From NCBI GenBank assembly GCA_029288895.1, contig JARIGK010000003.1:13868-77867 (forward strand): a DNA stretch of 64,000 nucleotides. The letters are read 5' to 3'. Position 1 is the first letter of the stretch. Every line of letters starts with the position of its first letter. Origin of the DNA: Candidatus Adlerbacteria bacterium (GTDB lineage Bacteria > Patescibacteriota > Minisyncoccia > Phycocordibacterales > SBAW01). The position numbers were made by a program, and so were the translations under genes. The notes under the pieces are model-generated. The model was not told the DNA's origin. It ran no database searches and worked only from the letters and a program-made list of their open reading frames with translations. Positions 7,524 through 45,716 of this stretch are shown in pieces.

Positions 7524-7638
7524 GTCCTGGCGACTACCTACTCTCCCCTACTGAAACGTAGAGTACCATCGGCGCACGCGGGCTTAACTTCCGTGTTCGG
7601 AATGAGAACGGGTGTGACCCCACTGCCAAATCACCAAG
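7524..7638 (-). rRNA. rrf: 5S ribosomal RNA
   Basis: The reverse complement reads TCTTGGTGATTTGGCAGTGGGGTCACACCCGTTCTCATTCCGAACACGGAAGTTAAGCCCGCGTGCGCCGATGGTACTCTACGTTTCAGTAGGGGAGAGTAGGTAGTCGCCAGGA. This is the canonical 5S core (CCGAACACGGAAGTTAAGC, GATGGTA, GGGAGAGTAGG), and helix I is closed by the two ends. Confidence 0.85.
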
Positions 7639-7729: not shown

Positions 7730-7769
7730 GATTCTCAAGCTGGCCCTTTTCTCCCCCCAATGGAAGAGG

Positions 7770-11070
<3,301 letters not shown>

Positions 11071-17597: not shown

Positions 17598-20500
17598 TTA
17601 CTTCGAGATAACGTTTGCGAAGCAGTCCTGACCGAGGCCAGCAGTTGCGAAGCAGCCGCCGAGGCCGTAGCCGTTAGTCCAGTCAGCCATGGTACCAGTA
17701 CCGACAACCGCAGTGGTGGTCGATTCAGGAGACCAGATGATGTTGCTTGCCTGGAGCGCAGTAGTGGTGGTTGCACCAACTGCTACTGCTGAGGTGTCAG
17801 CCTTGAGTGCTACCGAGACTGAACCCGTCGAGTTGCTGCCGTTCAAAGCGACAGTACCGCGGAGGGTGTAGGTCTTAGTAGTACCTGCTGCAACAACCGC
17901 ATCCGACGTGTTCGAACCATTGTCGAAGTAGACGGTGAGGAGGTTGCTGCTGGTTGCAAGGGATGTCGAAGCGACGTTGCCGTTAGGACCAGTGAAGGTC
18001 GGGCTCGACAAAGTTGCGTTCGAGAGGTTGAAGGTGAAGGTGAGCTTGTTCAAGGTCACATCGCCCTTCGAGTCTGCAGCAACAGTGAGGCTCAAGAGAA
18101 CCTGGTTACCGTTGACTGCGGTTGCACCTGCAGTGCTGTAGGTGAAGGTCGGGAATGATTTCACGATCTTAGCACCCTTAACTGCAGTGTCAGCTGAGCT
18201 CGGCTGAACGTTCTGGCCAGACGAGACGCCGACGCCGTAAGTACCGTTGGTACCAGTGACGTTGTTGCCATCGTAGTCGACCTTGACCGTATCACCCGAA
18301 ACCGTAATCGGACCGTTCACATTGATCGAAGCAATGTCACCCTTGATAACAAGGACGCGATTGCCGTTGACCGGGATGCGGAACGCACCCGATGCGATTG
18401 CTGACGAAGTTGCGTAGCTACCCGAAGCGAAGACTGCTGTACCAACCTGAGTGTTGGTCGTAGCATCCCACAACGTGACCTGGTTGTTTACGAGGTCGTA
18501 GTTGTTGCCTGAAGAGAGCTGGAGCGCAACCTGGCGCAAGTCGATAGCTTCGTTAGTGCCAGAGAAGTTGATGTGACCGAGGTCAACACCAGTTGCGCCG
18601 GCAGAAACTACGCTGTACGACGGAGTGCCTGAATCAACTGCGACCGACATGGTGCCGCCGGATGCCGAAGCAGCCATAGCAGGACCAGTCGAGCTGTTGA
18701 AGACTGCCGAAACAGTTGAACCGCTGGTTACACCCGATGCGCCAGTGTAGCCCGAGCCAGTGCCCAAGCCGAACTGGATAGTGTTTCCAGCACCCGAACG
18801 GAGGTCACATTCAACCGAGACCGTGACCGACGTACCCTTCGGAATGACGATGCCACCGCTGTTGAGCGTGAAGCTAAGGTCAGACGCAGAAGCGTTCGAC
18901 GAAGACGGGTTGACGATGTGCTGGTTCGAGATCGAAGTAGAACCGTTGTAGACCTGGCAGTTCGTTACATTGTTTGCAACTGAAGTACCGCCTGTGTAGG
19001 TGTACTTGATCGGGAGGGTCGTCACGCGGACGTCTTCACCCGAGTTCGTTGCATCGAGAACGATGTTTGCGAACGTGAACTGGTTGACACCAGAGATGAC
19101 AGTCTGTGCGATCGGAGTTGCCGAGACAGAGAGAGTCAACGCCTGTGCCTTCACAGTCATGAGTGCGCTTGCAAGGTTGCCAACAGTGTACGAGATCGTC
19201 TTACCAGTGTTCTGACCGACGATGTTCGAGATCGTATCAGTCTGAACCTTGATGGTGTCGTTGCTCTTGAAGCTGGTCGAAAGCTTGCCCTTGAGGAAGA
19301 GCTGAGTCGTACCAACTGGGAGAGTGACGCTGTCAGTGAAGGTCAAAACACCTGCTGATGCATCAACTGGACCTGCAAGCACGTGGCCTGCCTGGTCAAC
19401 GAGTTTAACGTTCGATACCCAAGTTGAGTCAATCCAAGTCTTACCAGAGAAGGTTGAGCTGCCGAGGTCGAAGACCATGCGGCCAATAGTCAACGGCTCG
19501 CCCTGGATCTGAACCTGGTAGCCACCGAGGACCTGGTCCATGGTGTTGAGAGCAACGTTCGATGCAGTTACAGCGTTCGTAGTCGAGACAGTGATAGTAC
19601 CTGCCTGAACTGAAACCTGGTAACCAGTGTAGTACGGATCATCAGTGCTGTTGATCACGCCTGCAGTGTTAGAACCGCTGACGTTGAACGACGGAAGGAT
19701 GCCGTAGCCGTACTGTGCACCAACAACGTTGATGTCAGAAGACTTCTGTACATCGAACTCGACGGTGGTGTTAGAGCCATTGGTGATATCACCCTGGATA
19801 GCAACATCCTTCGAGAAGCCTTTCTGGATCAAGATGCCCTGACCCGGGAAGACAGTCGAGTAGTAGTTGTCTGACGTAACAGTTACCGGGTACGAAGTAC
19901 CATCGACAACAGTTGCGACGTTAGCAAGGTAGCTCTGCGAGACCGAGCCAACCTGGTGCCAGCGGATCGACTTGAGGTACGTGTCTTCCGAAGAACCTGC
20001 CGTGAGGCGGACCGACGAGAAGATGTACGAAGTCTGGCCGACGTTTTCCTGGTTTGCTGAGCCTGGGTCATTGCTGCCCTTAGCTGCAGTGATCGAACCG
20101 ATGAGGTTCGATGCCTCGTTGATCGTCATGCTTGCGCCTGAGATCGGGAGGGAACCGCTCGTGACAGCTGCCGAAGAGTTAACTGCGACAACTGCGAACG
20201 TTGCGATCTGACCTGCGTAGGTTGAAGTGTTTGCACGATTTGCCGCGACCGTGAAGGTCATCGACGTACCGTTCGGGATCGTGACTGCTGAACCAACTAC
20301 CGCCTGGTGGTTGCTGTTCAAAGTCTTAGAGATACCGATCTGGGTGCCGTTCTGGTCCAAGAGCATCACGCCTGAAAACGCTGCGTCTGCCGCAATACCC
20401 TGGCGCTGGACGGTAACGTTGTTGAGGACTACATCGCCGCCAGAAGCGGTGACGGTGAACTTGGTGAACGGAACGCGAGCTGCATTGTTCGGAGCAAGGC

Positions 20501-21101
20501 CGTTTGCAGGCTGTGCTGCTGCCGAAACCATTGCAGTGCCGGTGCCAGTCGTAGTAGTGGTAGTGCCACCAGTGGTGGTCGTGGTGGTCGAGCCGCCGCA
20601 GAGCGAGTTAAGCTTTGCGCGAGTCAATGCACCGACGAAGCCAGAAACCGGAGAGATACCGTACTTGGTCTGGAACTTCATGACTGCTGCTTTCGTAGCA
20701 GGACCGAAGGTCGAAGTTTCCATACCAGCTGAACCAGCGCCAGATGCTGCAACCATAGTGCTTGAATCACTGTTCAAGAGCTTCTGGAGAGCCATAACCT
20801 GTGCACTCTTTGAACCAACCTGCATATCTGCAGTGAAGGTTGCCGCGCAAGAACCGCCAGTAGTAGTGGTGGTGCCGCCGGTTGAAGCCGGAGCAGAACC
20901 AGTGAGCGATGCCTGAACGTTTGCAATCGTCGCTGAATCAGCACCAAAGGACTGGAGCAACGAGATGATTGCGCTGACCTGCGAAGAGGTCAATGCCGCT
21001 GCGTGAGCAGGTGCTGCAATTGCGCCGAACATAAGTCCGAGAGCAACGACTGCGCCGCCGACGTACGCGACGAAACGAGATGAACTCTGAGTAATAGTCA
21101 T
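17598..21101 (-). CDS. Giant cell-surface protein (1167 aa): signal/TM anchor, two peptidoglycan-binding-like domains, Thr/Gly-rich linkers, and a long beta-rich Ser/Thr/Val/Asn-rich region
   Basis: N-terminal MTITQSSSRFVAYVGGAVVALGLMFGAIAAPAHA. Two PG_binding_1-like units are present (SQVSAIISLLQSFGADSATIANVQASLTG and SAQVMALQKLLNS...FGPATKAAVMKFQTKYGISPVSGFVGALTRAKLNSL). TTTTTGGTTTTTTGTGT linkers follow, and the remainder is of S-layer/adhesin-like composition. Confidence 0.85.
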   Translation of the reverse strand: MTITQSSSRFVAYVGGAVVALGLMFGAIAAPAHAAALTSSQVSAIISLLQSFGADSATIANVQASLTGSAPASTGGTTTTTGGSCAATFTADMQVGSKSAQVMALQKLLNSDSSTMVAASGAGSAGMETSTFGPATKAAVMKFQTKYGISPVSGFVGALTRAKLNSLCGGSTTTTTTGGTTTTTTGTGTAMVSAAAQPANGLAPNNAARVPFTKFTVTASGGDVVLNNVTVQRQGIAADAAFSGVMLLDQNGTQIGISKTLNSNHQAVVGSAVTIPNGTSMTFTVAANRANTSTYAGQIATFAVVAVNSSAAVTSGSLPISGASMTINEASNLIGSITAAKGSNDPGSANQENVGQTSYIFSSVRLTAGSSEDTYLKSIRWHQVGSVSQSYLANVATVVDGTSYPVTVTSDNYYSTVFPGQGILIQKGFSKDVAIQGDITNGSNTTVEFDVQKSSDINVVGAQYGYGILPSFNVSGSNTAGVINSTDDPYYTGYQVSVQAGTITVSTTNAVTASNVALNTMDQVLGGYQVQIQGEPLTIGRMVFDLGSSTFSGKTWIDSTWVSNVKLVDQAGHVLAGPVDASAGVLTFTDSVTLPVGTTQLFLKGKLSTSFKSNDTIKVQTDTISNIVGQNTGKTISYTVGNLASALMTVKAQALTLSVSATPIAQTVISGVNQFTFANIVLDATNSGEDVRVTTLPIKYTYTGGTSVANNVTNCQVYNGSTSISNQHIVNPSSSNASASDLSFTLNSGGIVIPKGTSVTVSVECDLRSGAGNTIQFGLGTGSGYTGASGVTSGSTVSAVFNSSTGPAMAASASGGTMSVAVDSGTPSYSVVSAGATGVDLGHINFSGTNEAIDLRQVALQLSSGNNYDLVNNQVTLWDATTNTQVGTAVFASGSYATSSAIASGAFRIPVNGNRVLVIKGDIASINVNGPITVSGDTVKVDYDGNNVTGTNGTYGVGVSSGQNVQPSSADTAVKGAKIVKSFPTFTYSTAGATAVNGNQVLLSLTVAADSKGDVTLNKLTFTFNLSNATLSSPTFTGPNGNVASTSLATSSNLLTVYFDNGSNTSDAVVAAGTTKTYTLRGTVALNGSNSTGSVSVALKADTSAVAVGATTTTALQASNIIWSPESTTTAVVGTGTMADWTNGYGLGGCFATAGLGQDCFANVISK

Positions 21102-34204: not shown

Positions 34205-35644
34205 TTAGTCTTTGCGAGCAAACAAATTCTCTGGTTTTTTGTTGGCCATAATACCCTCAATTATTTTCTTTGAAGTTTCCGGCAAAAAAGGAGCCAGCCA
34301 ATGTGCAATCTTTGTTAATTCTTTTACCTCTTCGATAATCATCGACCGCCCAAGCTCTAGATTAGTTTTTATTTCTTTGTATGGCTGATTCTCCGTTAAG
34401 TGCTTATCAAGGAAGCCTATATGCTGCCAAATAAAGTCCATAGCAGCGTTAACTTCGAAATCATCGAGCGTATTACGTAATTGCATAGGAAATTCGGTGG
34501 TTTCAATTTCTACCGCTGATTCGAGATTTTTCTCTGCCAGAGTCAGGACACGCGAAACGAGGTTGCCGAGACCGTTCGCCAGGTTCGCATTGTAGACCTC
34601 TTTGAATTGTTCGCGGGTGATATCGCCATCTTCAAATGGTGAGATGTGTCGCGCGAGGAAGTAACGCACCGCTTCGCTTCCGTATTCAGATATCAACTCT
34701 TCAGGGTCGATGACATTGCCGAGTGTCTTCGACATCTTTTTGCCACCCGAGGTGATAAAGCCGTGCACAAGCAGCGTCTTAGGTAGTGGAAGGCCGGCCG
34801 ACAGCAACATACCCGGCCAAATAGCCGCATGGAAACGCAAAATATCTTTGCCAATCACATGCACATCTGCGGGCCAGAATTCTTTGTAGAGTTCATCATC
34901 ACGGCCATACCCAAGCGCCGTGATGTAGTTTGCGAGCGCGTCACACCACACATACATTACCTGTGAGTCATCGCCCGGTACTGGCACGCCGAGGCCTTTC
35001 GGCCAGTGATCTTTGTGCGGGCGCGAGAAGCTCACATCTTCCAGTCCTTCGTTTTTGATAAACGAAAGAATTTCATGTTTGCGGCTCTCTGGCACTACCC
35101 TATATTCATCTGTTTCGATCTTTTTTTGGATTTCGTTTGCGTATTTTGAAAGGCGGAAGAAATAATTTTTCTCCTTCAAAAATTCCGGTGCAGTGCCATG
35201 GTCGGGGCATTTTCCATCAACCAAATCTTTTTCTGTCAGAAAGGCTTCGTGGCCCACGCAGTACAAGCCTTCATATTCTTTTTCGTATATATCGCCTGCA
35301 TCAACAAGTTTCTGCCACAACGCTGTGGCACCAGGCCAGTGTTTTTCTTGGTCTGTGGTGCGGATAAACTGATCGTACGAAATCTCCAGCTCGCGGAAGA
35401 GTCCTGCAAAATTTGCGACGATACCATCCAAGAATTCGAGAGGCTCCTTCCCCTCTTTGACAGCAGCATCAACCATTTTCTGCGTATTTTCGTCAGAGCC
35501 AGTAAGGAAGTATGTTTTGTCGCCCATCAATCGATGGTAACGAACGATGATGTCCGACAAGGTTGTCGTATATGCATGCCCCAAATGCAACTTGGCATTG
35601 GGATAGAAAATAGGCGTCGTGAGGTAGAATTTTTTGTCTGCCAT
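34205..35644 (-). CDS. metG: Methionyl-tRNA synthetase, short form
   Basis: 479 aa with HIGH as PIFYPNAKLHLGHAYT and KMSKS as GGKKMSKTLGN. Confidence 0.92.
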   Translation of the reverse strand: MADKKFYLTTPIFYPNAKLHLGHAYTTTLSDIIVRYHRLMGDKTYFLTGSDENTQKMVDAAVKEGKEPLEFLDGIVANFAGLFRELEISYDQFIRTTDQEKHWPGATALWQKLVDAGDIYEKEYEGLYCVGHEAFLTEKDLVDGKCPDHGTAPEFLKEKNYFFRLSKYANEIQKKIETDEYRVVPESRKHEILSFIKNEGLEDVSFSRPHKDHWPKGLGVPVPGDDSQVMYVWCDALANYITALGYGRDDELYKEFWPADVHVIGKDILRFHAAIWPGMLLSAGLPLPKTLLVHGFITSGGKKMSKTLGNVIDPEELISEYGSEAVRYFLARHISPFEDGDITREQFKEVYNANLANGLGNLVSRVLTLAEKNLESAVEIETTEFPMQLRNTLDDFEVNAAMDFIWQHIGFLDKHLTENQPYKEIKTNLELGRSMIIEEVKELTKIAHWLAPFLPETSKKIIEGIMANKKPENLFARKD

Positions 35645-35655
35645 TACCTTAGAGG

Positions 35656-36717
35656 CTACTCTGCCGCTGCGCGCTTCGCAAGGGCGCGTTTTTTCTCGCG
35701 GTCGATGTCGTTGACGTATTCCTGGATTGCGCCCGCGATAGGCACCGAAAGCAGCACGCCAAGGAAGCCTACGAGCTGGAAGCCAATAAGCAAGGAGAGG
35801 ATGACCAAGAGCGGAGGCACGCCCACCACCTTTTTGACGACAACCGGGTAAATCAAGTGCGCTTCAAACTGCTGCACGATTATGTAGAGGCCGGCGATCA
35901 AGAACGCTTCTGTGACACCACCGGCAACTAAGCCTATGGCAATGGCAGGCACCATCGCGAGGATCTGTCCGAAGACTGGAATCAGTTCAAACACGCCTGC
36001 GAGCACCGCAAGCAAGAGCGGGTGCGGCACGTCGAGTATCAAAAGTCCCAAGTAGAGCAAGATGCCGACGATGAGCGCCAAGACAAGCTGCCCCTGCATC
36101 CACTTCCCTATTTTGTTTTGCGAACGGCGCCAGAGGCCAAGCACGTATGCCTGATTATCGATCGGCGTAATCACACGGAGAAAATCATCGACACCCGTTT
36201 CTTGTACAGAAAAGTAGAACGAGAAGACGACGATCAAGATAAATGATGTGACGCCACCAAAGAATGCCGAGAGTGCGCCGAACGCTTCGCCACTTGAGCC
36301 TCGCAATGAGGACGAAAGATTGCTCAAGACATCAGCAGACGAGAAGGCTTGGCCAACATTACCCCACGGAAGGAGCCCGTGCGTGACGTCAGTGATATTC
36401 AAATTCGAAAGGGTTGCAGGGAGCTGTGCGACGAAATTGGCGATATCACTCAACACCGGCGGCACGAAGAAGAATACGACGCCAAAGAATGCGCCGATAA
36501 CGAGTATGTACAGCAAAATGACGGACAGGAGGCGCGGGACGCCGCGGCGCATCAAGCCGTGCACGCCTGGCTCCATCGCCGAGGCAATAACAACCGCCGT
36601 GAGCACAATAAGGACGATGTCGCGGAGGAACCACAGAAGCCCCACCAATATAAGAAAGAGGATGGTTTTGATAATCGTCCCCGAGGAGATGTGGACGTTG
36701 ATGTCGCGTTCAGCCAT
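35656..36717 (-). CDS. AI-2E family transporter (PerM/YhhT-like permease)
   Basis: 353 aa with 7-8 TM helices in the typical AI-2E arrangement. Confidence 0.75.
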   Translation of the reverse strand: MAERDINVHISSGTIIKTILFLILVGLLWFLRDIVLIVLTAVVIASAMEPGVHGLMRRGVPRLLSVILLYILVIGAFFGVVFFFVPPVLSDIANFVAQLPATLSNLNITDVTHGLLPWGNVGQAFSSADVLSNLSSSLRGSSGEAFGALSAFFGGVTSFILIVVFSFYFSVQETGVDDFLRVITPIDNQAYVLGLWRRSQNKIGKWMQGQLVLALIVGILLYLGLLILDVPHPLLLAVLAGVFELIPVFGQILAMVPAIAIGLVAGGVTEAFLIAGLYIIVQQFEAHLIYPVVVKKVVGVPPLLVILSLLIGFQLVGFLGVLLSVPIAGAIQEYVNDIDREKKRALAKRAAAE

Positions 36718-36740
36718 GCCGAAACTATATCACACCAGCA

Positions 36741-38138
36741 CTAGAGTTTGGATTTGATGAAGGATGCGAGCTCTGCTATAGGCATACGAGACTGCTCGCC
36801 CGTGTCACGGTCGCGCACGGTAACAGTGTCTTTATGCTCTGGATTCTCACCCAACGTGTCAAAGTCGATCGTGATGCACCACGGCGTGCCAATTTCATCC
36901 TGGCGGCGGTAACGTTTGCCGATGTTACCGTTGTCATCCCACACAATCTGCGGCACTTCTTTCTTCAAGTTTTGATACACCTCACGCGCCTTCTCTACCA
37001 ACTCTGGTTTGTTCTTCAAGAGCGGAAACACTGCAGCCTTCACCGGCGCCAAGTGCGGCGGGAATTTCATCACGACGCGAGTTTCCCCATCCATCTCATC
37101 TTCGAAGTATGCGCTGCACAACACAGCCAAGAACAAACGGCCCATACCCATCGACGTTTCCAAAATCCAAGGAATAAACTTCTCTCCTGTGTTCGGGTCG
37201 GTATAGCGCAAATCAACACCAGAGAATTTCATATGCTGCGACAAATCGTAGTCGGTGCGGTCGTGAATACCTTCCACCTCATCAAACCCAGACGGGAACT
37301 CGTACTCGATATCCCATGCATCTTTTGCATAGAAGACGAGATTCTCGTGTTGCTTGAAGCGCAGTTTTTCTTTAGGAATACCAAGCGTCAGGTACCAATT
37401 AAAGCGATCCTGTTTCAATTTCTCGTACGGCTCTTTGTTTTCGTTCGGGCGGATGAAGAGCTGTGTATCGGCCTGTTCGAATTCACGTGTTCTAAACAAA
37501 AAGTTACGTGGCGAAATTTCGTTACGGAACGCCTTACCAATCTGCGCAACACCAAACGGCAACTTCGGCTGCATGGTGTCCACAATATTTTTGTAATCAA
37601 GGTAGATACCCTGGCACGCCTCCCCCGGCAAATAGACAGGATCATTCCCTTCTGAGGTAAAGTCACCCAAATTGCTCTTTACCAAGAGGTTAAATGCCTT
37701 TGCGCGTGTAAAATCTTTTTTTCCGCAGACAGGGCACGCGATTTCATCACGGTGCTGGTCGAACAATTCGTTGATTGCTTCTTCCGACATTTTTTCGTCG
37801 GCGCTAACGCCCAAGCTTCCTAGTTCTTTATCGACACGGATACGCGCATGGCAATTACGGCATTCTGCAAGAGGGTCTGCAAACCCGCCAACATGGCCCG
37901 ACGCTTCCCACGTACGTGGATGTTTAAACATTCCTGCATCAAGCCCGAAGTGATTTTCTTTATCGTAGACGTTCGCCTTCCACCACGATTGTTTTAAGTT
38001 ATTCAAAAGCTCAACACCGCGCGGGCCAAAGTCATACACACCAGCCAAGCCGCCGTAGATTTCGGAGCCTTGGAAGACAAAGCCGCGGCGCTTGCAGAGC
38101 GATACGATTTTTTCCATTACGTTGTTGGTGTCAGACAT
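36741..38138 (-). CDS. glyQS: Glycyl-tRNA synthetase, alpha2 homodimeric type
   Basis: 465 aa. MSDTNNVMEKIVSLCKRRGFVFQGSEIYGGLAGVYDFGPRGVELLNNLKQSWW... is the archetypal GlyRS2 N-terminus, with class II motifs following. Confidence 0.92.
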   Translation of the reverse strand: MSDTNNVMEKIVSLCKRRGFVFQGSEIYGGLAGVYDFGPRGVELLNNLKQSWWKANVYDKENHFGLDAGMFKHPRTWEASGHVGGFADPLAECRNCHARIRVDKELGSLGVSADEKMSEEAINELFDQHRDEIACPVCGKKDFTRAKAFNLLVKSNLGDFTSEGNDPVYLPGEACQGIYLDYKNIVDTMQPKLPFGVAQIGKAFRNEISPRNFLFRTREFEQADTQLFIRPNENKEPYEKLKQDRFNWYLTLGIPKEKLRFKQHENLVFYAKDAWDIEYEFPSGFDEVEGIHDRTDYDLSQHMKFSGVDLRYTDPNTGEKFIPWILETSMGMGRLFLAVLCSAYFEDEMDGETRVVMKFPPHLAPVKAAVFPLLKNKPELVEKAREVYQNLKKEVPQIVWDDNGNIGKRYRRQDEIGTPWCITIDFDTLGENPEHKDTVTVRDRDTGEQSRMPIAELASFIKSKL

Positions 38139-38155
38139 ACAAATGTAGAGTTGGA

Positions 38156-40090
38156 TTATTGAACAGTGCCCATGTTGCCGTTGTAGCCCGCGTCGCCCGA
38201 AAGCTGCGTAGTTGGGCCATTTGCCGAGGCACTAACCTGCGTCTGTGCAAAACGATCTTGGCCCGAGAGCGAAGCGGAACCTGTGAGTGCCGGCGCCTGG
38301 CCGCTTTGCGACGAGCTAGGCTGGAGCGATACCTGGAAGGCCGCCGTACGTGCTGGACTTCCAACACCGCTGCCTGCTTTCAAATCCCCCATCGACCACG
38401 TTACCGTGCGGCTCTTTTGGTCGTACGCCACACCGCTGCCTTGAGCCGCCGCAACAAAGGTTACGTACGATGGCAAGGTTGCAGACACAGTCGCATTGGC
38501 AATGGTATTCGATGTGTTTGAGGCCGTCCAGAGAATGGTGTATGTCGTGTTTTGGCCAGACATTGGTGGCATCGGCCCGGTGTTCGAGAACGGCCCCGAG
38601 AAGTGGAGCGCCTGTGCATTTAACGTTACTTGTGACGCGACACGCACCGACATGGATGCAGCCGATGACACCTGCTCTGGAACGTTCTGTTCGCCTTGGC
38701 GCGTACCTTCTACGCTCAAGTTAAGCGAGATGGTCGGGTTCGAATACAGCGTACCGCCTGCACCCGGTGCTTTTGTTGTAAAGCTAAACGGCAACGTTGC
38801 AGTTGCCCCTGGAGCCACCGTCGCAAGCGTCTGCTCTTGGTCCTTCGACCACACGAGCGTCGAGCCCGACGATTGGTAAAACGCCGTAGGTGCCGAAATC
38901 GAACTTGTGTCGATTGTTGGACCGCTAAAAGAAAGTTTGAGCGTCACGTCGGACACCGCATCCGGCAAATTGTTGGTCCATGTCACCGTGCCCTGCACCT
39001 GCGTACCTGCGGGCACTGACACGGTTTTGCCGCTCTGCCCCGCGACTGCGAGTTGTGCGGTGATAAACGGGCGATGCACCGCGAGCGTTTGCGGCACCGA
39101 AAGGTACGGCACCGGGATGCGCGTATCAGTTTCATCGGCATCCGAACCTGCTAGGAAGTAGAAAACGCGGCTGTCGCCATCTTGGCCGTCGAGCGAACCA
39201 GTGAGGTGCAACACTTTGCTTTCGCCTGGCTCTAGCGTGCCCAAGCGCCACAACGTATTGCCAGCCATCGCTTGCGGCGACGTATTCGCCGCACTAAAGC
39301 CAAATGGGTACTGACCTTGGATCACAACATTGTCGAGCGCCGCGGGCGCATTGCTTTGCACGGTAATATCCATGCCAAACTGTTGCCCCGCAATGGCTTC
39401 CGATGGTGAGGCAATCGATATAGAAACAGGCGAAGAGCCGACGGTAAACGTCATGTCGGCATCGCGTTCAAAAATGGCGTTTGAGCCGTCGACGTTGTAC
39501 TGCAACTGCACCGCTACTTTTTGCTGCTGGCCTTCTTGGCCGTAGAAAATTGCTTGCGCGGTGCGCTGCACGGTTTGCCCCGCGCGTATGGTGCCAATGG
39601 ACTGGCGTTCATGCACTAAAGACTGCGACGGGTTGGCCGGGTCGCGTGTACCTGAGGGGTACGTCAGTATCAAGTCTGCCAACTGCAAGTCGGCCTGGTT
39701 TCTGTTGGTGATCAAAATCTGCAAGCCGCTTGTTTTCCCACCGTCGATAACAGACGGCATAACAACCGTAAGGTCGATGTTTTGCGGCGAGATGCTATTG
39801 CCGCCCGAGAAAAAGAGGTAGACCGCCACAAGCGCTGCCGCGCAGAAAAATGCCAGCGACACCAACAAAAATTTGGTTGGGAGCGACATCTTCGATTTTT
39901 TGAGTTTGGGCGACAAGGTAAATTGTTGTGCGGGTTTTTCTTCTTTTGCATCTGGCCACGCAACAGGCGGCCGTGATTCGTTGGGAGAAAGCGGTGTACG
40001 TTCGCTCGGGTCCACACTCGCAGGGTTTGCCCTTGAATAAAGCTTGTCGTGCAAGCCGTCGACGGAACGCTTCTTCTCCTCTTCCTGCAT
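38156..40090 (-). CDS. Large membrane-anchored extracellular protein with a repetitive beta-rich ectodomain (DUF11/CARDB-like)
   Basis: 644 aa: cytoplasmic N-tail, one TM helix (FLLVSLAFFCAAALVAVYLFF), then a Ser/Thr/Gln-rich extracellular region. Confidence 0.6.
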   Translation of the reverse strand: MQEEEKKRSVDGLHDKLYSRANPASVDPSERTPLSPNESRPPVAWPDAKEEKPAQQFTLSPKLKKSKMSLPTKFLLVSLAFFCAAALVAVYLFFSGGNSISPQNIDLTVVMPSVIDGGKTSGLQILITNRNQADLQLADLILTYPSGTRDPANPSQSLVHERQSIGTIRAGQTVQRTAQAIFYGQEGQQQKVAVQLQYNVDGSNAIFERDADMTFTVGSSPVSISIASPSEAIAGQQFGMDITVQSNAPAALDNVVIQGQYPFGFSAANTSPQAMAGNTLWRLGTLEPGESKVLHLTGSLDGQDGDSRVFYFLAGSDADETDTRIPVPYLSVPQTLAVHRPFITAQLAVAGQSGKTVSVPAGTQVQGTVTWTNNLPDAVSDVTLKLSFSGPTIDTSSISAPTAFYQSSGSTLVWSKDQEQTLATVAPGATATLPFSFTTKAPGAGGTLYSNPTISLNLSVEGTRQGEQNVPEQVSSAASMSVRVASQVTLNAQALHFSGPFSNTGPMPPMSGQNTTYTILWTASNTSNTIANATVSATLPSYVTFVAAAQGSGVAYDQKSRTVTWSMGDLKAGSGVGSPARTAAFQVSLQPSSSQSGQAPALTGSASLSGQDRFAQTQVSASANGPTTQLSGDAGYNGNMGTVQ

Positions 40091-40114
40091 CTAAAAAGTA
40101 TACCCTATCGGCAA

Positions 40115-40693
40115 TCAGAGCCCAGTTTCAGCGAGCGATGCATTGATGGCGCGTATCACTACCGGTTTCGATTGCCGAACCGCTGCGATAAGTTCGTGCG
40201 AAAACTCACTGCCTTCCAAAAACGGCGTGAGTGCAGGCCGCTGCTCGACATAGCCAAGGATGGACAAAATACGCAAGACGAGCACGCATTCGATAAGTTC
40301 GATATCGGCATCAGGGGCGCCTGCTACATACCGAAGGCCATTCGTAACATTCTCATAGAGCATCGGCACCCGCTCTTCGCCGTGAATGAGGCGCAACAGC
40401 AAGCGTGCGATGCGGCCGGCACACGCGCGCGAGGCACGAGTATCCCCCACGTACGCATGTGATATATGTTGTGCACCTGTGAGCTTCCACTCGTGTTTGC
40501 CGCGCAGAAGAGAAAAGGTGCCCGCAGTCAGTGTCTCAAGCCCGTAGCGGAGTTTGGAACGCTCGAGCCTCGCCGAGCGCGCCGAGCCGCGGATGACGCC
40601 AAACTCTTTTGTGAGTAAGACCACCGACGTGTTGGCTTCGCCGCGGCCGCGTTTGGCAAGTACTATCCCCTCGCTCGCAACAATGTCGTGCAT
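40115..40693 (-). CDS. recO: DNA repair protein RecO, short
   Basis: 192 aa. N-terminal OB-fold pattern EGIVLAKRGRGEANTSVVLLTKEFGVIRGSARSAR. The start overlaps the ileS stop. Confidence 0.5.
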   Translation of the reverse strand: MHDIVASEGIVLAKRGRGEANTSVVLLTKEFGVIRGSARSARLERSKLRYGLETLTAGTFSLLRGKHEWKLTGAQHISHAYVGDTRASRACAGRIARLLLRLIHGEERVPMLYENVTNGLRYVAGAPDADIELIECVLVLRILSILGYVEQRPALTPFLEGSEFSHELIAAVRQSKPVVIRAINASLAETGL

Positions 40694-43600
40694 TACTTCA
40701 CTTCCAAGACCAATGCTTTCAAGCCGGTTTGTGCAATAAGCGTTGCGTTGTATTTTTCTGCCACAGATTTTTCTTCCGCACTTACCTCGAGCGTCATCGT
40801 TGGGCGGTCACTAATCGAAAGCTTCTGCTCTTTGCGCCACTCTTGGATACGGCGCGCGATGTCGCGCACCATCCCCTCTTCCTTGAGTTCTGGTGTAAGG
40901 ACGGTATCGAGCACAACCTCTTTGAGGCCTGCATCAACGACAACTTCTTTTACGTTGACTTCGTCGGCGACAATCGCGCGGAGTTCGTCTGGCAGTGCGT
41001 GGTTGATAGAAAGCTTCGCGAGCGGCTGGCGCACTTTGATGGCTGCCTGGTCGCGGGCTTTGAGGCCCGCGGATGCGGCGTCGCGTGCAATGTCCATGTC
41101 GAGAAGCAACTGCGCATCGACTGCGCCAGCATGCGGCCAGTGTGAAAGGTGCACGCTGCCCTCTTCGCCTATGCCTTGCCAAACACTTTCTGCAATAAAC
41201 GGTGTGATAGGCGCCAGGAGTTGGGCTACTGTGCGGAGCACGTGGCGTTGCACCGCAACGCACAACGCCGCATCGGCGGTGTCGCTGCGAGCGCGGTCGC
41301 GCGAGCGGCGGACATACCACGTCGAGTACTGTTCGATAAAGGCGCGTATAGGGCGGCAGGCGTTAGGCATGTTGTATGCATCAAATGCTGCAGTGCTTTC
41401 TGCTACCGTTTTGTTCAAGAGCGAGAGTACCCAGCGGTCGAGCGGGTGCGTGCTTGTGGCAACGTCTACATCGGAAACTTTATCGCGGTAGAGTTCGAAG
41501 AATTTAAATGAGTTCCACAGGGTGCCCACAACGCGGTTATGTATCTCGCGCACATCTTCGTCGCGGAAGTTCAAATCTTCCGCCTGCATCACGACAGAGC
41601 TCATCAAGTAAAAGCGGTATGCGTCCGAGCCCCACTTCTCCATCAACTCCCACGGGTCGGTGTAGTTTTGCTTCGACTTACTCATCTTCGAGCCATCGGC
41701 CGCCAAGATGTTGCCCGTCACGGTCACTGCTTTAAATGATCGTTTGCCAAACAAGAAGACGCCCATCGCGTGCATGTAGTAAAACCACGTGCGCGTCTGG
41801 CCGATGTATTCGGCGATAAAGTCGCCCGGGTATCCTTTTGGCGCAAGGCCAAAGAAGCGTTCGGGATTCACCCGCGTTTTGTCGTGCGGGTAGCTCATCG
41901 ACGCAAACGGCATCGAGCCCGACTCCACCCAGCAGTCCAAGACTTCTGGGATGCGCTCGTAGCGGCTCCCCTTTTCATCGACCAACACAACATCGTCAAT
42001 ATAAGGACGATGCAGGTCGAGCTCGAACTTTGCATTGTGCGGGAATGGCGTAAATGGCAACGGCATCGACATGCCAGGTTCTATAAATACACCGTCGCGT
42101 TCGCGCGCAATATCTTCGTTGGTTTTATAGTGTGCCACCTCATGCAAAAGCCACGCCGGGCATTCGTGCGTAACAATAAGAATACGTCTGCCAATATAGC
42201 GGCGCTCAAGTTCAAAAAGAAACTCACCAACGCGTCGGCGCACATCTGCATACGTTTCTCCGCCCTCCACCGCTTTTTCGAAGCGCTCCAGGCGTGACGG
42301 AAACGCATTCCTCCAGTCAGCTATTGCTTTCCCATCATAGACACCCATTTCGATTTCGCGCAGACGCTCGTCAGTCATCAATGCCGAATCAGGCAGGCCC
42401 AATTCTTTCAGTACAAGTTTTGCGGTTTCTTGCGTACGGGCCAACGGCGACGCAACGATCATATCGATCTTCTCTTTGCTCAACGTTGCTGCAGTCGCAC
42501 GCACAACACTTCTGCCCGTCTCTGTTAGATGATTGTCGGGGTTGCCCTTCGTTTCAAAAACGCCCTTCGTATTATTCTCCGCCTCACCATGACGCATCAT
42601 AAAATAGGCGTTGCCAGATTTTTTCGTCTTAGAAAGAAGTTCTTCCAAAGAACCCACAACCATCAACTTCTTCCCTTCTTTTTCTTTCCAAATAGGAAGT
42701 GGTGATGCCCAAAAACGATTGCGCGAAATGGTCCAGTCCGGCGCATTCTCGACGATGTTGCGGAAGCGCCCCTGCTTCAAGTGCTCGGGGAACCACGTCA
42801 CCTTGTCGTTTTCTTTGAGCATTTTGCTCTTTATCTTTTGGATATTCAAAAACCACGACGGCACGGCGTTGTATATAAGTGCGGTGCCGCAACGCCAGCA
42901 GTGCGGGTAGCTGTGCGTATACATCTCGCGCGTGTGCAGCAAGCCGCGCGCTTCCAAATCGGCTTTGATATCTTTCTCGCCCTGCTTGATGTACTTGCCG
43001 CGCACAAGTTCAGGCGCCAAGTGGTTGTAGTGGCCGTTGCTTTCGAGCGTCTGCACCATCGGCAACTTTTCGCGGAGGCCAAGCTGGAAGTCGTCCTCGC
43101 CGTACATCACGGACGTGTGCACGATGCCGGTGCCGTCTTCTGCCGAGACAAAGTCTGCCGCCCACACTTTGTATGACCGCGGGCCTTTGAGTGCCGGCAC
43201 GTCAAAGAGCGGCTCGTACTCGATGCCAACCAAGTCTTTGCCCTTCAAGTCACCGCCATCTTCGTGCTCTATATAGTGTGCATTCCCCTCCTGCACCACG
43301 GCGTAGGTAATGTCATTGCCCACAGCAAGCCCTACATTGCTTGGCAAGGTCCATGGCGTCGTGGTCCACGCAAGCAGGTACGTATTTTCTGGCAAATTAA
43401 ATCGGCGTGGGTTTTTAACCTTAAAGCGCGCCACGACCGCTTCTTCTGTCACATCTTTGTAGGTGTTGTCGGCGGCGATTTCTGCTTTTGCCAATGGCGT
43501 TTCGCAGTGCGGGCAGTACATCAAGACCTTGCGTCCCTCGTACATCAAATTTTTGTCGTGCAAACGCTTCAGCGCCCACCAGATGGACTCGATGTAGGAG

Positions 43601-44046
43601 TTGTCCATTGTCTTGTACGAATTGTCGAAGTCGACCCAGCGGCCGACGCGGTCGACGTAGCGCTTCCAGTCGTGCACGTACTGCAGCACGAGCGAGCGCG
43701 CTTTTTCGTTAAATGCTTCGATACCGATATCGAGAATATCTTTTTTGGTTTTAAGGCCAAGTGTTTTCTCGACCAAGTTCTCGATCGGGAGGCCGTGCGT
43801 GTCCCAACCCCACACACGAGGCACGCGGTAGCCGCGCATCGTTTTGTAGCGCGGCACGACGTCTTTGATTATTGAAGAAAGCAAAGAGCCCGAGTGCGGC
43901 AAGCCTGTCGCAAACGGTGGCCCATCATAAAAAACAAAGTCGCCTTTGGGGGCCTCCTTTTCAACTGACTTTTCAAATGTCTTATCCTCTTTCCAAAATG
44001 CGAGAACCTTCTCCTCGCGCAGGACTGTCTCGCTCTTTTCTGCCAT
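40693..44046 (-). CDS. ileS: Isoleucyl-tRNA synthetase (type 2, eukaryote-like) with a variant HSGS motif and an inserted histidine-phosphatase domain
   Basis: 1117 aa. GPPFATGLPHSGSLL replaces the IleS2 consensus PPFATGLPHYGHIL. The CP1 editing domain, WTISRNRFWASPLPIW and KMSKSKQNY are all present. A domain of about 190 aa (YFMMRHGEAENN...IVTHECPAWLL) is inserted between the WxISRxR box and the DCWVESGSMPF region (roughly nt 42052-42615). Confidence 0.9.
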   Translation of the reverse strand: MAEKSETVLREEKVLAFWKEDKTFEKSVEKEAPKGDFVFYDGPPFATGLPHSGSLLSSIIKDVVPRYKTMRGYRVPRVWGWDTHGLPIENLVEKTLGLKTKKDILDIGIEAFNEKARSLVLQYVHDWKRYVDRVGRWVDFDNSYKTMDNSYIESIWWALKRLHDKNLMYEGRKVLMYCPHCETPLAKAEIAADNTYKDVTEEAVVARFKVKNPRRFNLPENTYLLAWTTTPWTLPSNVGLAVGNDITYAVVQEGNAHYIEHEDGGDLKGKDLVGIEYEPLFDVPALKGPRSYKVWAADFVSAEDGTGIVHTSVMYGEDDFQLGLREKLPMVQTLESNGHYNHLAPELVRGKYIKQGEKDIKADLEARGLLHTREMYTHSYPHCWRCGTALIYNAVPSWFLNIQKIKSKMLKENDKVTWFPEHLKQGRFRNIVENAPDWTISRNRFWASPLPIWKEKEGKKLMVVGSLEELLSKTKKSGNAYFMMRHGEAENNTKGVFETKGNPDNHLTETGRSVVRATAATLSKEKIDMIVASPLARTQETAKLVLKELGLPDSALMTDERLREIEMGVYDGKAIADWRNAFPSRLERFEKAVEGGETYADVRRRVGEFLFELERRYIGRRILIVTHECPAWLLHEVAHYKTNEDIARERDGVFIEPGMSMPLPFTPFPHNAKFELDLHRPYIDDVVLVDEKGSRYERIPEVLDCWVESGSMPFASMSYPHDKTRVNPERFFGLAPKGYPGDFIAEYIGQTRTWFYYMHAMGVFLFGKRSFKAVTVTGNILAADGSKMSKSKQNYTDPWELMEKWGSDAYRFYLMSSVVMQAEDLNFRDEDVREIHNRVVGTLWNSFKFFELYRDKVSDVDVATSTHPLDRWVLSLLNKTVAESTAAFDAYNMPNACRPIRAFIEQYSTWYVRRSRDRARSDTADAALCVAVQRHVLRTVAQLLAPITPFIAESVWQGIGEEGSVHLSHWPHAGAVDAQLLLDMDIARDAASAGLKARDQAAIKVRQPLAKLSINHALPDELRAIVADEVNVKEVVVDAGLKEVVLDTVLTPELKEEGMVRDIARRIQEWRKEQKLSISDRPTMTLEVSAEEKSVAEKYNATLIAQTGLKALVLEVK

Positions 44047-44084
44047 ATCAGATAAATATAGACGAGCGGCGCCTATAAATAAAG

Positions 44085-45716
44085 CTACATTTCCTGCGGT
44101 GTCGGGATGCCAAGGACATCCAAGCCTTTTGCCAGGGTGTGCTCAATAGCTTGCACAAAGAAGAGTGCGGCATCTGACACTTCCCCATCTACGATCAATC
44201 GCTCCTGCGCGTACCAACTATTGAACGCCGCCGCGAGCTCTGTCAGGTACGTCACCACATGATGTGGCTCAAGCTCGCCTGCGGCGCGCGCAACCGCATC
44301 GGGGAAATGAAGCATCAAACGCGGTAGTTCGATATTTGAGAATTCTTTTTCTACAATCTTTGCCTCCGCGGATTGGCGCAAGAGCGAACGGGTGCGCACA
44401 AGCGCGTATTGCACGTACGGACCCGAGTCGCCTTCAAGCGAAAGAGATTTCTCTGGGTCAAACGAAATATCTTTCCCACTTCCCTGTTTAAGCACGGTGT
44501 ATTTAAGTGCACCTACGGCAACATCTTCGCGGTTGCGCGCAACTTCTGTGACTTCTGCCAACAATGACTCGCCCGTAATGACATTACCCAAACGCGACGA
44601 CATTTTGCCCGTCGTTAACTTCAAGAAGCTCGTTGGGATATGCAGCAAATCTTTGCCGTCGGTCTTGCCGGGGAATAATTTTCGCAACGCATCAAACACA
44701 ATACGGAAAAAGTCAGTTTGTTCTTTGCCGGTAACAGTGATCGATATATCGAAACTTGGGTACGCCTCCGACTTTAGCTGGAAGAGGCCAACTTCTTTTG
44801 CTTCATACGTTGGCAGACCCTGCGAATTTAAAAACACGCGCGTATGTTCGCCTTTGTAGACGACAGCGCCTTCGCTTTCTTCAAATACTTTGCCCACTTC
44901 GCCGCGGACGATGCGCGCACCAAGCGGGCCAGATTCACTTTCAAAAAATTCTTTATCGAACCCTTGCGTGCCGAGGCGCGCCAATAATGCGTGCAAATGC
45001 TTAAGAGATGTCGCGATGCCTTTTTCGCGCAAAGCAGACCATTCAGCATTCGAACCGGCATACAACGCACGGTTTATCTCTTCGATTTTTTCTTTTGCCT
45101 CGCCGCTTTCGTACGCTTCGTTACCAGCAACATAGGCCTTCCCCAGCTGCGCAATATCTTCCGCGTTTAAATTTCCATTCTGCAAACCCCACACGCCTTT
45201 GGCGATGGTAAGGCCGATGTCGGAGGGATAGTTCAAGCGTTTAACATCAGCACCGCTTGCTTCAAACAAGCGCGCAACGCTCTCGCCCACAATGTTGCCC
45301 ACCAAGTTGCCGATATGGAGCGGCTTAAAGAGGTTAGGGCTCGTATATTCCACAAGCACCTTCTTTCCTATGTACAGTTCATTTGTGCCCCACCCTTCCT
45401 CGTGTGCTGCGCGCACGACATCAGCGAGCGCTTCGTTTGAGAGCCAGAAGTTGATAAACCCAGCGCCTGCGATTTCTGTTTTCTCGATACCTTCTATTGT
45501 GCCAAGTGCATTCTGCAACTCTGCTGCAACTTCGCGCGGATTCTTTTTCAAAACTTTTGCCGCAGCCAGCGCCGCATTCGTTGCGTAGTCGCCATGCTCC
45601 ATCGAGCCCGGCCTCTCCACCACAAACGCAATATCACCCGCACCCATCCCCTCGAGCGCATGTTGAATTGCTTTTTCTATCTCATGCCGAACCATACTAT
45701 TCCTTAACAATAACAA
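44085..45716 (-). CDS. argS: Arginyl-tRNA synthetase
   Basis: 543 aa with an ArgRS N-terminal add-on domain and catalytic core. The motif reads ..EYTSPNLFKPLHIGNLVGN.. (HIGN where HVGH is usual), and the C-terminal DALR anticodon-binding domain is present. Confidence 0.88.
   Translation of the reverse strand: MLLLRNSMVRHEIEKAIQHALEGMGAGDIAFVVERPGSMEHGDYATNAALAAAKVLKKNPREVAAELQNALGTIEGIEKTEIAGAGFINFWLSNEALADVVRAAHEEGWGTNELYIGKKVLVEYTSPNLFKPLHIGNLVGNIVGESVARLFEASGADVKRLNYPSDIGLTIAKGVWGLQNGNLNAEDIAQLGKAYVAGNEAYESGEAKEKIEEINRALYAGSNAEWSALREKGIATSLKHLHALLARLGTQGFDKEFFESESGPLGARIVRGEVGKVFEESEGAVVYKGEHTRVFLNSQGLPTYEAKEVGLFQLKSEAYPSFDISITVTGKEQTDFFRIVFDALRKLFPGKTDGKDLLHIPTSFLKLTTGKMSSRLGNVITGESLLAEVTEVARNREDVAVGALKYTVLKQGSGKDISFDPEKSLSLEGDSGPYVQYALVRTRSLLRQSAEAKIVEKEFSNIELPRLMLHFPDAVARAAGELEPHHVVTYLTELAAAFNSWYAQERLIVDGEVSDAALFFVQAIEHTLAKGLDVLGIPTPQEM

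Follow-up and report, generated by a model that had tools for sequence, protein, structure and literature searches.

Isoleucyl-tRNA Synthetase With a Nested Phosphatase Domain

The DNA considered here is a stretch of 64,000 nucleotides (nt) from a Candidatus Adlerbacteria bacterium (contig JARIGK010000003.1; hereafter the window), whose reverse strand carries ileS, the gene for an isoleucyl-tRNA synthetase (IleRS) within which a complete histidine-phosphatase domain is nested. An earlier note, made from the letters alone, had drawn attention to this arrangement, and our analysis bears it out: the domain lies in frame within a bona fide IleRS, with its catalytic residues intact. The gene and its parts are located as follows.

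40693..44046, reverse strand: ileS open reading frame (ORF), 1117 amino acids (aa) plus stop; type-2 IleRS hosting the phosphatase domain, in a single uninterrupted frame
42637..44046, reverse strand: IleRS residues 1-470, comprising the first Rossmann half, connective peptide 1 (CP1) and editing domain, and the WTISRNRFWASPLPIW box; aligns with 8C8U
43885..43896, reverse strand: class I signature motif H51-S52-G53-S54 (HSGS, not HxGH)
42034..42636, reverse strand: inserted module, residues 471-671, histidine-phosphatase domain plus short linkers; boundaries from the 8C8U alignment
42130..42603, reverse strand: match to Pfam His_Phos_1 (PF00300), residues 482-639; E = 2.1e-35, profile positions 2-159 of 194
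42586..42594, reverse strand: R485-H486-G487, the RHG motif, H486 being the predicted phospho-accepting nucleophile
42436..42438, reverse strand: R537, second phosphate-binding Arg (SPLxRTxETA motif); aligns with R62 of cofactor-dependent phosphoglycerate mutase (dPGM), 45/45 homologues
42355..42357, reverse strand: E564, predicted general acid/base (DERLRE motif); aligns with E89 of dPGM, 45/45 homologues
42253..42351, reverse strand: lid/flap segment, about residues 566-598; deleted in 8/45 homologues
42166..42168, reverse strand: H627, second catalytic His (IVTHECP motif); aligns with H184 of dPGM, 44/45 homologues
40693..42033, reverse strand: IleRS residues 672-1117 plus stop, with DLHRPYID, DCWVESG, the second core half, KMSKS, the anticodon-binding domain and the type-2 C-terminal domain
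41674..41688, reverse strand: KMSKS motif, residues 787-791

Judged by its motifs and by the equivalog model that it passes, the host protein is a type-2 IleRS, and probably a working one. Pfam placed tRNA-synt_1 on it in two stretches, together with His_Phos_1, Anticodon_1 (residues 870-1010) and DUF5915 (1044-1107), and the NCBIfam ileS equivalog TIGR00392 was matched above its cutoff (787.1 bits vs. 621.4), likewise in two stretches broken by the insert. The full-length AlphaFold2 model (mean predicted local distance difference test, pLDDT, 81; predicted template modeling score, pTM, 0.67) found its best structural matches among type-2 enzymes (IleRS2), namely 8C8U/V/W, yeast IleRS and 1ILE, with TM scores of 0.70-0.79 when normalized to target length. 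In an alignment with 45 homologues (A1), the editing motifs TTTPWTLP and GTGIVH..GEDD were invariant or nearly so, K787, S789, K790 and S791 of KMSKS as well as H51 and G53 of the signature motif were invariant, and S54 was present in at least 90% of sequences. Loss of the fourth-position His, as in HSGS, was confined to a close clade (HHGS in locus L046, HYGS in L044 and HFGN in L026), and HYGH was the signature motif in most other insert-bearing IleRS of the species genomes that we scanned. The window enzyme finds its best sequence matches, like its best fold matches, in type-2 enzymes such as Priestia megaterium IleRS2 (PmIleRS2; 8C8U/8C8V) and Thermus thermophilus IleRS (1ILE), and it shares their domain order, with a Rossmann (HUP) core split by CP1, editing domain and connective peptide 2 (CP2), followed by KMSKS, Anticodon_1 and the type-2 C-terminal domain. 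It differs from IleRS2 in bearing a phosphatase domain of about 200 residues where those enzymes have a 7-residue linker in the zinc-knuckle hairpin, in having lost the zinc ligands, and in having HSGS in place of HxGH.

Position and Boundaries of the Insert

Alignment to the solved P. megaterium enzyme paired residues 9-470 of the window IleRS with residues 12-474 of the 8C8U chain, and residues 672-1059 with 482-870. Because both flanks align contiguously, residues 471-671 constitute an insertion of about 200 aa that replaces 7 residues; the interval proposed in the earlier note, nt 42052-42615, comes close to these limits. The spacing from the WxISRxRxW box to DxWxxSG tells the same story, being 256 aa in the window IleRS vs. 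59-90 aa in 32 species-genome IleRS lacking an insert, and 249-272 aa or 436-445 aa in species-genome enzymes with one or two inserts, respectively. The G+C content is even across the insert junctions.

The HUP core of PmIleRS2 comprises residues 40-168 and 513-632 (PMC10485003), and the insertion point, at PmIleRS2 residues 475-481, falls in the connective-peptide region just before the second core half resumes at 513; from this position we infer that the region is CP2. The suggestion that the domain interrupts the catalytic core therefore holds in part: the insert does lie between the two Rossmann halves, but within the connective-peptide/zinc-knuckle hairpin and not in the core itself. In many IleRS the hairpin that hosts the insert carries a CxxC...CxxC zinc knuckle. 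All four of these cysteines, which would flank the insert, are missing from the window enzyme, and across 64 IleRS they were present or absent independently of the insert.

A Complete Branch-1 Histidine Phosphatase

The insert makes up a whole, discrete histidine-phosphatase domain of branch 1. It passed the gathering threshold of PF00300 by a wide margin (122.6 bits vs. 21.7), and both motifs that had originally called attention to it are present, YFMMRHGEAENN at residues 481-492 and IVTHECPAWLLHE at residues 624-636. Folding likewise returned a discrete domain, with block means of pLDDT of 82-95 within the full model and, when the insert was modeled alone, a pLDDT of 90.2 and a pTM of 0.88. 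The catalytic set R485, H486, R537, E564 and H627 (R-H-R-E-H), together with N492, was kept in 43-45 of the 45 homologues, which are 57-100% identical to the window enzyme. Within the RHG motif, where R485 and H486 align with R10 and H11 of dPGM, R was found in 44, H in 45 and G in 43 of the 45. This conservation stands out in a domain that evolves faster than its host (mean column conservation 0.58 in the insert vs. 0.81 in the IleRS core). In eight homologues (P0010, P0013, P0017, P0020, P0040, P0043, P0060 and P0079) some 32 residues following E564 have been lost with R-H-R-E-H kept. The domain appears to be an active phosphatase.

By sequence, the nearest solved relatives of the insert are PspA (E = 3e-15), PhoE, TIGAR, GpgP and CobC, the identity to PspA, PhoE, GpgP and CobC being 24-27%. 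By fold, they are 1FZT, a small monomeric mutase from Schizosaccharomyces pombe that ranked at the top, together with PhoE (1H2E), PspA (4IJ6) and GpgP (4PZ9) (Foldseek probability 1.00, TM 0.72-0.77). Among NCBIfam models the best match was PRK07238, the phosphatase half of an RNase H/acid-phosphatase fusion (93 bits vs. a cutoff of 326), and the models for PspA (NF045917, 68.7 vs. 350 bits), for the alpha-ribazole phosphatase CobC (TIGR03162, 81.8 vs. 162.9) and for dPGM (NF038349, 76.5 vs. 225) were all below cutoff; TIGR01258 was absent from the 25 families listed. The dPGM substrate residues Y92, K100, R116, R117 and N186 (Escherichia coli numbering) were unconserved or gapped in the 45 inserts and in 15 free-standing relatives, the K100 position being gapped in all 60 sequences. 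Judged by these missing mutase-specific residues, the insert is very probably not a phosphoglycerate mutase (PGM).

With PhoE (1H2E/1EBB), PspA (4IJ5), GpgP (4PZ9) and CobC the insert shares the fold, the R-H-R-E-H set, a length of about 190-210 aa and the lack of mutase-specific residues. It differs from them in its low identity and failure to reach any specific family cutoff, in being nested instead of free-standing, and in the absence of the lid from some of its relatives. The RNase H/CobC-like acid phosphatase of Rv2228c type (PRK07238) is likewise a branch-1 histidine phosphatase fused to a nucleic-acid enzyme, but there the fusion is end to end and not nested, and the partner enzyme is a different one.

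Distribution and Recurrence in IleRS of the Candidate Phyla Radiation

Among the matches listed, all 120 homologue clusters, which come from independent NCBI, JGI, ENA and Logan assemblies, had PF00300 at the same place, down to 57% identity, and hence the insert is not a one-off. The named clusters belong to Paceibacterota, Adlerbacteria, Kaiserbacteria, Minisyncoccia and the Patescibacteria group, and the NCBI label of the insert-bearing homologues is 'class I tRNA ligase family protein'. Among the species-representative genomes scanned, about 35 loci of Paceibacteria type had one His_Phos domain at the window site (site 1), and seven loci of Peribacteria and Peregrinibacteria had tandem pairs; in an eighth, the Peribacterales locus L068, the second copy is cut by the contig end. 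The same scan found no insert in Magasanik-, Doudna-, Uhr-, Falkow- or Gottesmanbacteria, in Saccharimonadales, in DPANN archaea or in bacteria outside the candidate phyla radiation (CPR). In Paceibacteria-type genomes an IleRS with the insert is the usual case, and Peribacteria, Peregrinibacteria and Gracilibacteria have the domain again, often in several copies. Third-party assemblies with the title 'uncultured Candidatus Saccharibacteria bacterium' supplied many of the insert-bearing loci, and the explicitly named Saccharimonadales loci (L087 and L088), as well as L086 ('Candidatus Saccharibacteria bacterium'), are without the insert; the former title is probably a placeholder for Patescibacteria and not a taxonomic statement.

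An exhaustive search with the insert returned 15,171 matches at E <= 1e-3 and was followed by a second search with one variant. In other CPR lineages three or more IleRS loops were found to host His_Phos domains, with R-H-R-E-H kept in each complete copy: in addition to site 1, the domain occurs between DxWxxSG and KMSKS (site 2; P0217, P0268 and P0461) and between KMSKS and the anticodon domain (site 3; P0217, P0224, P0268, P0412 and P0450). Some enzymes carry multiple copies, as tandem pairs at site 1 or in numbers up to four (P0145). In one relative of 1504 aa (P0460), residues 566-765 at site 2 are occupied by a HAD-family phosphatase, with two HAD_2 stretches in Pfam and no His_Phos domain; its nearest families are phosphoglycolate phosphatase, PpaX and YjjG, each under cutoff. 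This replacement by a non-homologous enzyme points to phosphatase chemistry as the selected trait.

The same loops bear other modules, including GNAT domains, P-loop kinases (of AAA_33, AAA_18 or Zeta type), a serine hydrolase, DUF559 and an IS200-type Y1_Tnp domain. For these accessory modules all NCBIfam matches were under cutoff and the PDB matches were weak; the best solved match of the kinase was the RNA-repair kinase Pnkp1 (4XRP, E = 7e-4), and the GNAT module resembled N-acetyltransferases including RimI. The named hosts of the multi-site and module variants are Gracilibacteria, Peregrinibacteria and Peribacteria, and the multi-site variants belong to CPR bacteria and not to archaea. 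In a neighbor-joining tree the site-2, site-3 and tandem copies joined free two-domain proteins, one of them from a Woesearchaeota archaeon; as the branches are long and the method crude, we draw no conclusion from the tree on the number of independent insertions.

An accessory enzyme in an IleRS loop is also the principle behind NF040702, the NCBIfam model 'isoleucine--tRNA ligase, N-acetyltransferase domain-containing', and behind the CPR enzymes with GNAT, kinase, HAD or hydrolase modules. The window IleRS is distinct from NF040702 (306.6 bits vs. a cutoff of 1999) in that its accessory domain is a histidine phosphatase at another position, and neither Pfam nor NCBIfam detected an acetyltransferase family in it. 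T4 Pnkp consists of a P-loop kinase and a HAD 3′-phosphatase. Together with bacterial Pnkp1 (4XRP), it offers a working analogy to those IleRS relatives that pair a P-loop kinase with a His_Phos or HAD phosphatase, although the window IleRS has no kinase module in Pfam and no ligase partner was seen; to our knowledge, histidine phosphatases have no precedent in RNA end-healing.

Several of these relatives also contain domains of mobile-DNA type (P0193, P0483, P0412, P0425, P0426, P0476 and P0477). In P0193 an IS200-type Y1 transposase lies in frame at residues 340-461, within the editing-domain region, and DUF559/Vsr-like endonuclease domains are in frame at residues 294-399 of P0477 and 572-675 of P0412. 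At locus L040 (3267-7355) the IleRS gene contains three in-frame TGA codons and no other stops; read with genetic code 25 it encodes 1363 aa with two His_Phos domains. The TGA codons fit a lineage in which UGA is recoded, for example Gracilibacteria or Absconditabacteria.

Free-Standing Relatives and Gene Order

In the window, ileS is flanked on the same strand by the following genes, the order being argS, ileS with the phosphatase inside, recO, a DUF11 protein and a class II synthetase.

44085..45716, reverse strand: argS, separated from the downstream ileS by a 38-nt gap; Pfam Arg_tRNA_synt_N, tRNA-synt_1d and DALR_1
40115..40693, reverse strand: recO, downstream of ileS with a TAATG stop/start overlap; Pfam RecO_N and RecO_C

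No second His_Phos gene was found in the 64 kb. The closest free-standing relatives of the insert form the P0196 family of 188-213-aa proteins, with 35-42% identity over the whole insert; its named members are mostly Candidatus Staskawiczbacteria, with other Parcubacteria among them. For this set we considered Met-initiated proteins of that length whose genomic context had been verified, and P0142 was left out because its cluster holds a 723-aa member, which makes it probably an IleRS fragment. In all seven contexts sampled, argS and an insert-less ileS flank the phosphatase gene, all three being on one strand. The gap to ileS is 2-98 nt in five of the seven, and one small gene intervenes in the other two. 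Beyond ileS come recO, the gene for a DUF11/CLIPPER surface protein and that for a class II synthetase, as in the window. Compared with the window, then, the phosphatase is a separate polypeptide and its partner IleRS is insert-less. These partner enzymes fall into two lineages, one with a GVHH motif and about 35% identity to the window enzyme, and one of window type with about 47% identity to it (51% and 43% in the two flanking segments). GVHH, which is found in the insert-less IleRS of L001 and L004, is the swapped motif linked to mupirocin hyper-resistance (PMC10485003).

The intervening gene at L091 (5570-6160, forward strand) encodes a CYTH protein, of the triphosphate tunnel metalloenzyme family, and that at L094 an unannotated protein of 238 aa. 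At L001-L003 a gene for an unassigned protein of 214 aa precedes the phosphatase gene. On several contigs resembling Staskawiczbacteria, a reverse-transcriptase (RVT_1) gene lies just upstream of the pyrH-argS-phosphatase-ileS block (L004, 5113-5613; L091, 1890-2663; L093, 1128-2102). In a Woesearchaeota archaeon (L007-L010, 8001-9862, forward strand), a gene for a two-domain histidine phosphatase of 404 aa is followed, with a 4-nt overlap, by a His_Phos gene of 216 aa, so that three related phosphatase domains stand one after another, away from ileS.

Other Features of the Window

The synthetase genes of the window are clustered, four of them lying within about 11.5 kb on the reverse strand (34205-45716): a short metS (479 aa), a class II enzyme with an HGTP anticodon domain, ileS and argS. 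Interspersed among them are recO, the gene for the DUF11 surface protein and an AI-2E transporter gene. The largest ORF in the window, of 1167 aa, is at 17598-21101 on the reverse strand. A 23S rRNA match at 7768-11070 (reverse strand) spans 3303 nt vs. the 2925 positions of the model, about 380 nt extra, and no intron family reached its Rfam gathering threshold. The 5S rRNA follows the 23S at 7525-7638 on the same strand. Since no 16S rRNA was found in the 64-kb window, the rRNA genes appear to be unlinked.

Discussion

Our preferred explanation, to which we assign a probability of roughly 0.55, is that the insert is a catalytically competent phosphomonoesterase of the PhoE/PspA/GpgP kind that selection has kept coupled to a working type-2 IleRS. 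The module occupies the tip of the connective peptide's zinc-knuckle hairpin, ahead of the second Rossmann half, and is related to the small free-standing gene found between argS and ileS in sister Parcubacteria lineages. By the chemistry of the family, H486 would attack a terminal phosphate held by R485, N492, R537 and H627, E564 would protonate the leaving group, and water would hydrolyze the phospho-histidine. The conservation of the nucleophile and the acid/base residue, the repeated gain of the domain in several loops, its replacement by a HAD enzyme and the arrangement as neighboring genes all argue that phosphatase chemistry is selected and that coupling to IleRS, whether physical or stoichiometric, is favored. 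As a separate gene, or an insertion into any of three loops, seems to suffice, the exact geometry is probably unimportant, and co-localization or matched expression may be what is retained.

Several observations weigh against this explanation. The insert has a net charge of -1 and a pI of 6.7, and being near-neutral it does not have the look of an RNA-binding surface. No specific NCBIfam family reaches its cutoff for the insert. The seven contexts with a free-standing gene all belong to a single, fairly narrow phosphatase family, whose members share at least about 55% identity, and they do not count as independent samples. The multi-domain phosphatases of a Woesearchaeota archaeon are not adjacent to ileS, and the subfamily is therefore not tied to IleRS everywhere. 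Catalysis, moreover, is predicted, and the inserts, which were compared within IleRS, may not be specific to it.

On the substrate we can offer tentative suggestions. The leading one, of rather low probability, is that the domain acts on a terminal phosphate of a nucleotide or RNA end handled by IleRS, such as a 3′-phosphate-blocked tRNA acceptor end or a by-product of nucleotide or pyrophosphate type; a generic small phospho-metabolite is about equally likely. Weak hints in favor of the former are the Pnkp1-like kinase, the RimI-like GNAT, the CYTH gene at L091, the best match to PRK07238 and the dispensability of the lid, whose loss leaves the active site open. The earlier note had also raised the editing of Ile-AMP. 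Histidine phosphatases, however, pass a terminal PO3 group to the nucleophilic His, and Ile-AMP is an acyl-phosphate anhydride whose phosphate is of diester type, so this proposal does not fit. A broader and rather doubtful extension is that the IleRS of the CPR serves as a platform of cis-acting end-repair enzymes, in which the phosphatase, histidine or HAD, would clear the acceptor end of the tRNA, or nucleotide by-products, of a blocking 3′-phosphate or pyrophosphate, joined in some lineages by the Pnkp-like kinase, an N-alpha-acetyltransferase and an esterase.

Alternatively, the insert may be an unrelated housekeeping phosphatase, for instance for phosphate or nucleoside scavenging, sugar phosphates or phosphoserine, that became fused through permissive loops to a highly expressed, essential operon neighbor, the two activities being independent. 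The fact that a separate neighboring gene suffices in some lineages speaks for such passive association, as do the acceptance of the domain by three loops, which implies that geometry is not critical, the presence in IleRS of unrelated, selfish-looking domains (the DUF559 endonuclease-like and IS200-type Y1_Tnp domains) and the Woesearchaeota relatives that are unlinked to ileS. We nevertheless consider it unlikely, given that phosphatases were gained repeatedly at three sites and in up to four copies, that a non-homologous HAD enzyme occupies one of the same loops, and that adjacency is retained across two divergent IleRS lineages; in combination, these findings are difficult to account for unless the pairing is selected. 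Fainter is the chance that the phosphatase belongs to a biological conflict, acting with the GNAT, kinase and hydrolase modules to inactivate natural IleRS inhibitors at their target or to reverse toxin modifications, such as those made by kinase toxins at the KMSKS loop or the (pyro)phosphorylation of CCA ends. Acetyltransferases, P-loop or Zeta-type kinases and serine hydrolases are classic resistance and toxin enzyme classes, IleRS is a frequent antibiotic target, and the signatures HSGS in the window and GVHH in L001 and L004 are unusual. Against this stand the window IleRS, which bears the phosphatase alone, the lack of a visible toxin gene beside the window locus and the weakness of all the accessory-module similarities, and we know of no phosphorylated IleRS inhibitor.

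We think it quite improbable that the domain is a non-catalytic sensor, through which a phospho-ligand would act allosterically on IleRS, or a prop that takes over from the zinc knuckle in stabilizing the connective peptide. The conserved phosphate-binding pocket could sense a ligand and all four knuckle cysteines are gone from the window enzyme, but invariance extends beyond the binding residues to the nucleophile His and the acid/base Glu, and the HAD replacement points to catalysis instead of shape. As a structural stand-in for the zinc knuckle in particular, the insert was rejected on the 64 IleRS compared, in which cysteine pairs and insert were uncorrelated. PGM is reported to be absent from several shallow clades of Parcubacteria, where it is possibly too divergent to detect (Jaffe et al., 2020, PMC7304191), and an embedded glycolytic dPGM might fill this gap. 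The idea finds some encouragement in the S. pombe mutase as top structural match and in the 'probable phosphoglycerate mutase' label that some sources give to relatives. It is very improbable in view of the missing substrate residues, the dPGM score far under cutoff, the subclade in which the whole segment bearing the mutase-specific residues is deleted, and sequence neighbors (PspA, PhoE, GpgP, CobC and TIGAR) that are phosphatases. Finally, since the phosphatase is a separate gene beside ileS in some relatives, one might suspect a frameshifted or chimeric assembly that joined the two. The chance of this is negligible: the domain is internal, with IleRS sequence aligning on both sides in one frame, the same architecture is shared by over 120 clusters, drawn from independent assemblies, and by about 45 species genomes, and the composition across the junctions is even; the single frame, the flanking alignment and the independent assemblies refute such an artefact.

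Synthetases are known to acquire editing and appended domains, and a synthetase with an accessory domain is in itself familiar. The nested phosphatase is apparently undescribed, and its recurrence surprising. In agreement with what the earlier note had supposed, we found no description of an IleRS with a nested phosphatase in the literature, subscription journals being outside the scope of the search, and a 2026 survey of 96,219 IleRS sequences makes no mention of phosphatase, GNAT or Patescibacteria. The architecture is implicit in databases: JGI names one relative 'isoleucyl-tRNA synthetase/phosphohistidine phosphatase SixA/...GNAT', and NCBIfam, as described above, holds a model for IleRS with an embedded GNAT.

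A practical consequence is that automated pipelines may score the nested domain as a phosphoglycerate mutase, and metabolic reconstructions of these organisms would then be distorted. If the platform of end-repair enzymes outlined above were real, the CPR would possess a synthetase with built-in tRNA-end healing or anti-toxin activity. More generally, a second, chemically unrelated catalytic domain nested in an essential synthetase, conserved across a large radiation and acquired repeatedly, suggests that these minimal-genome organisms have an unrecognized need to couple the removal of phosphate to isoleucine charging.

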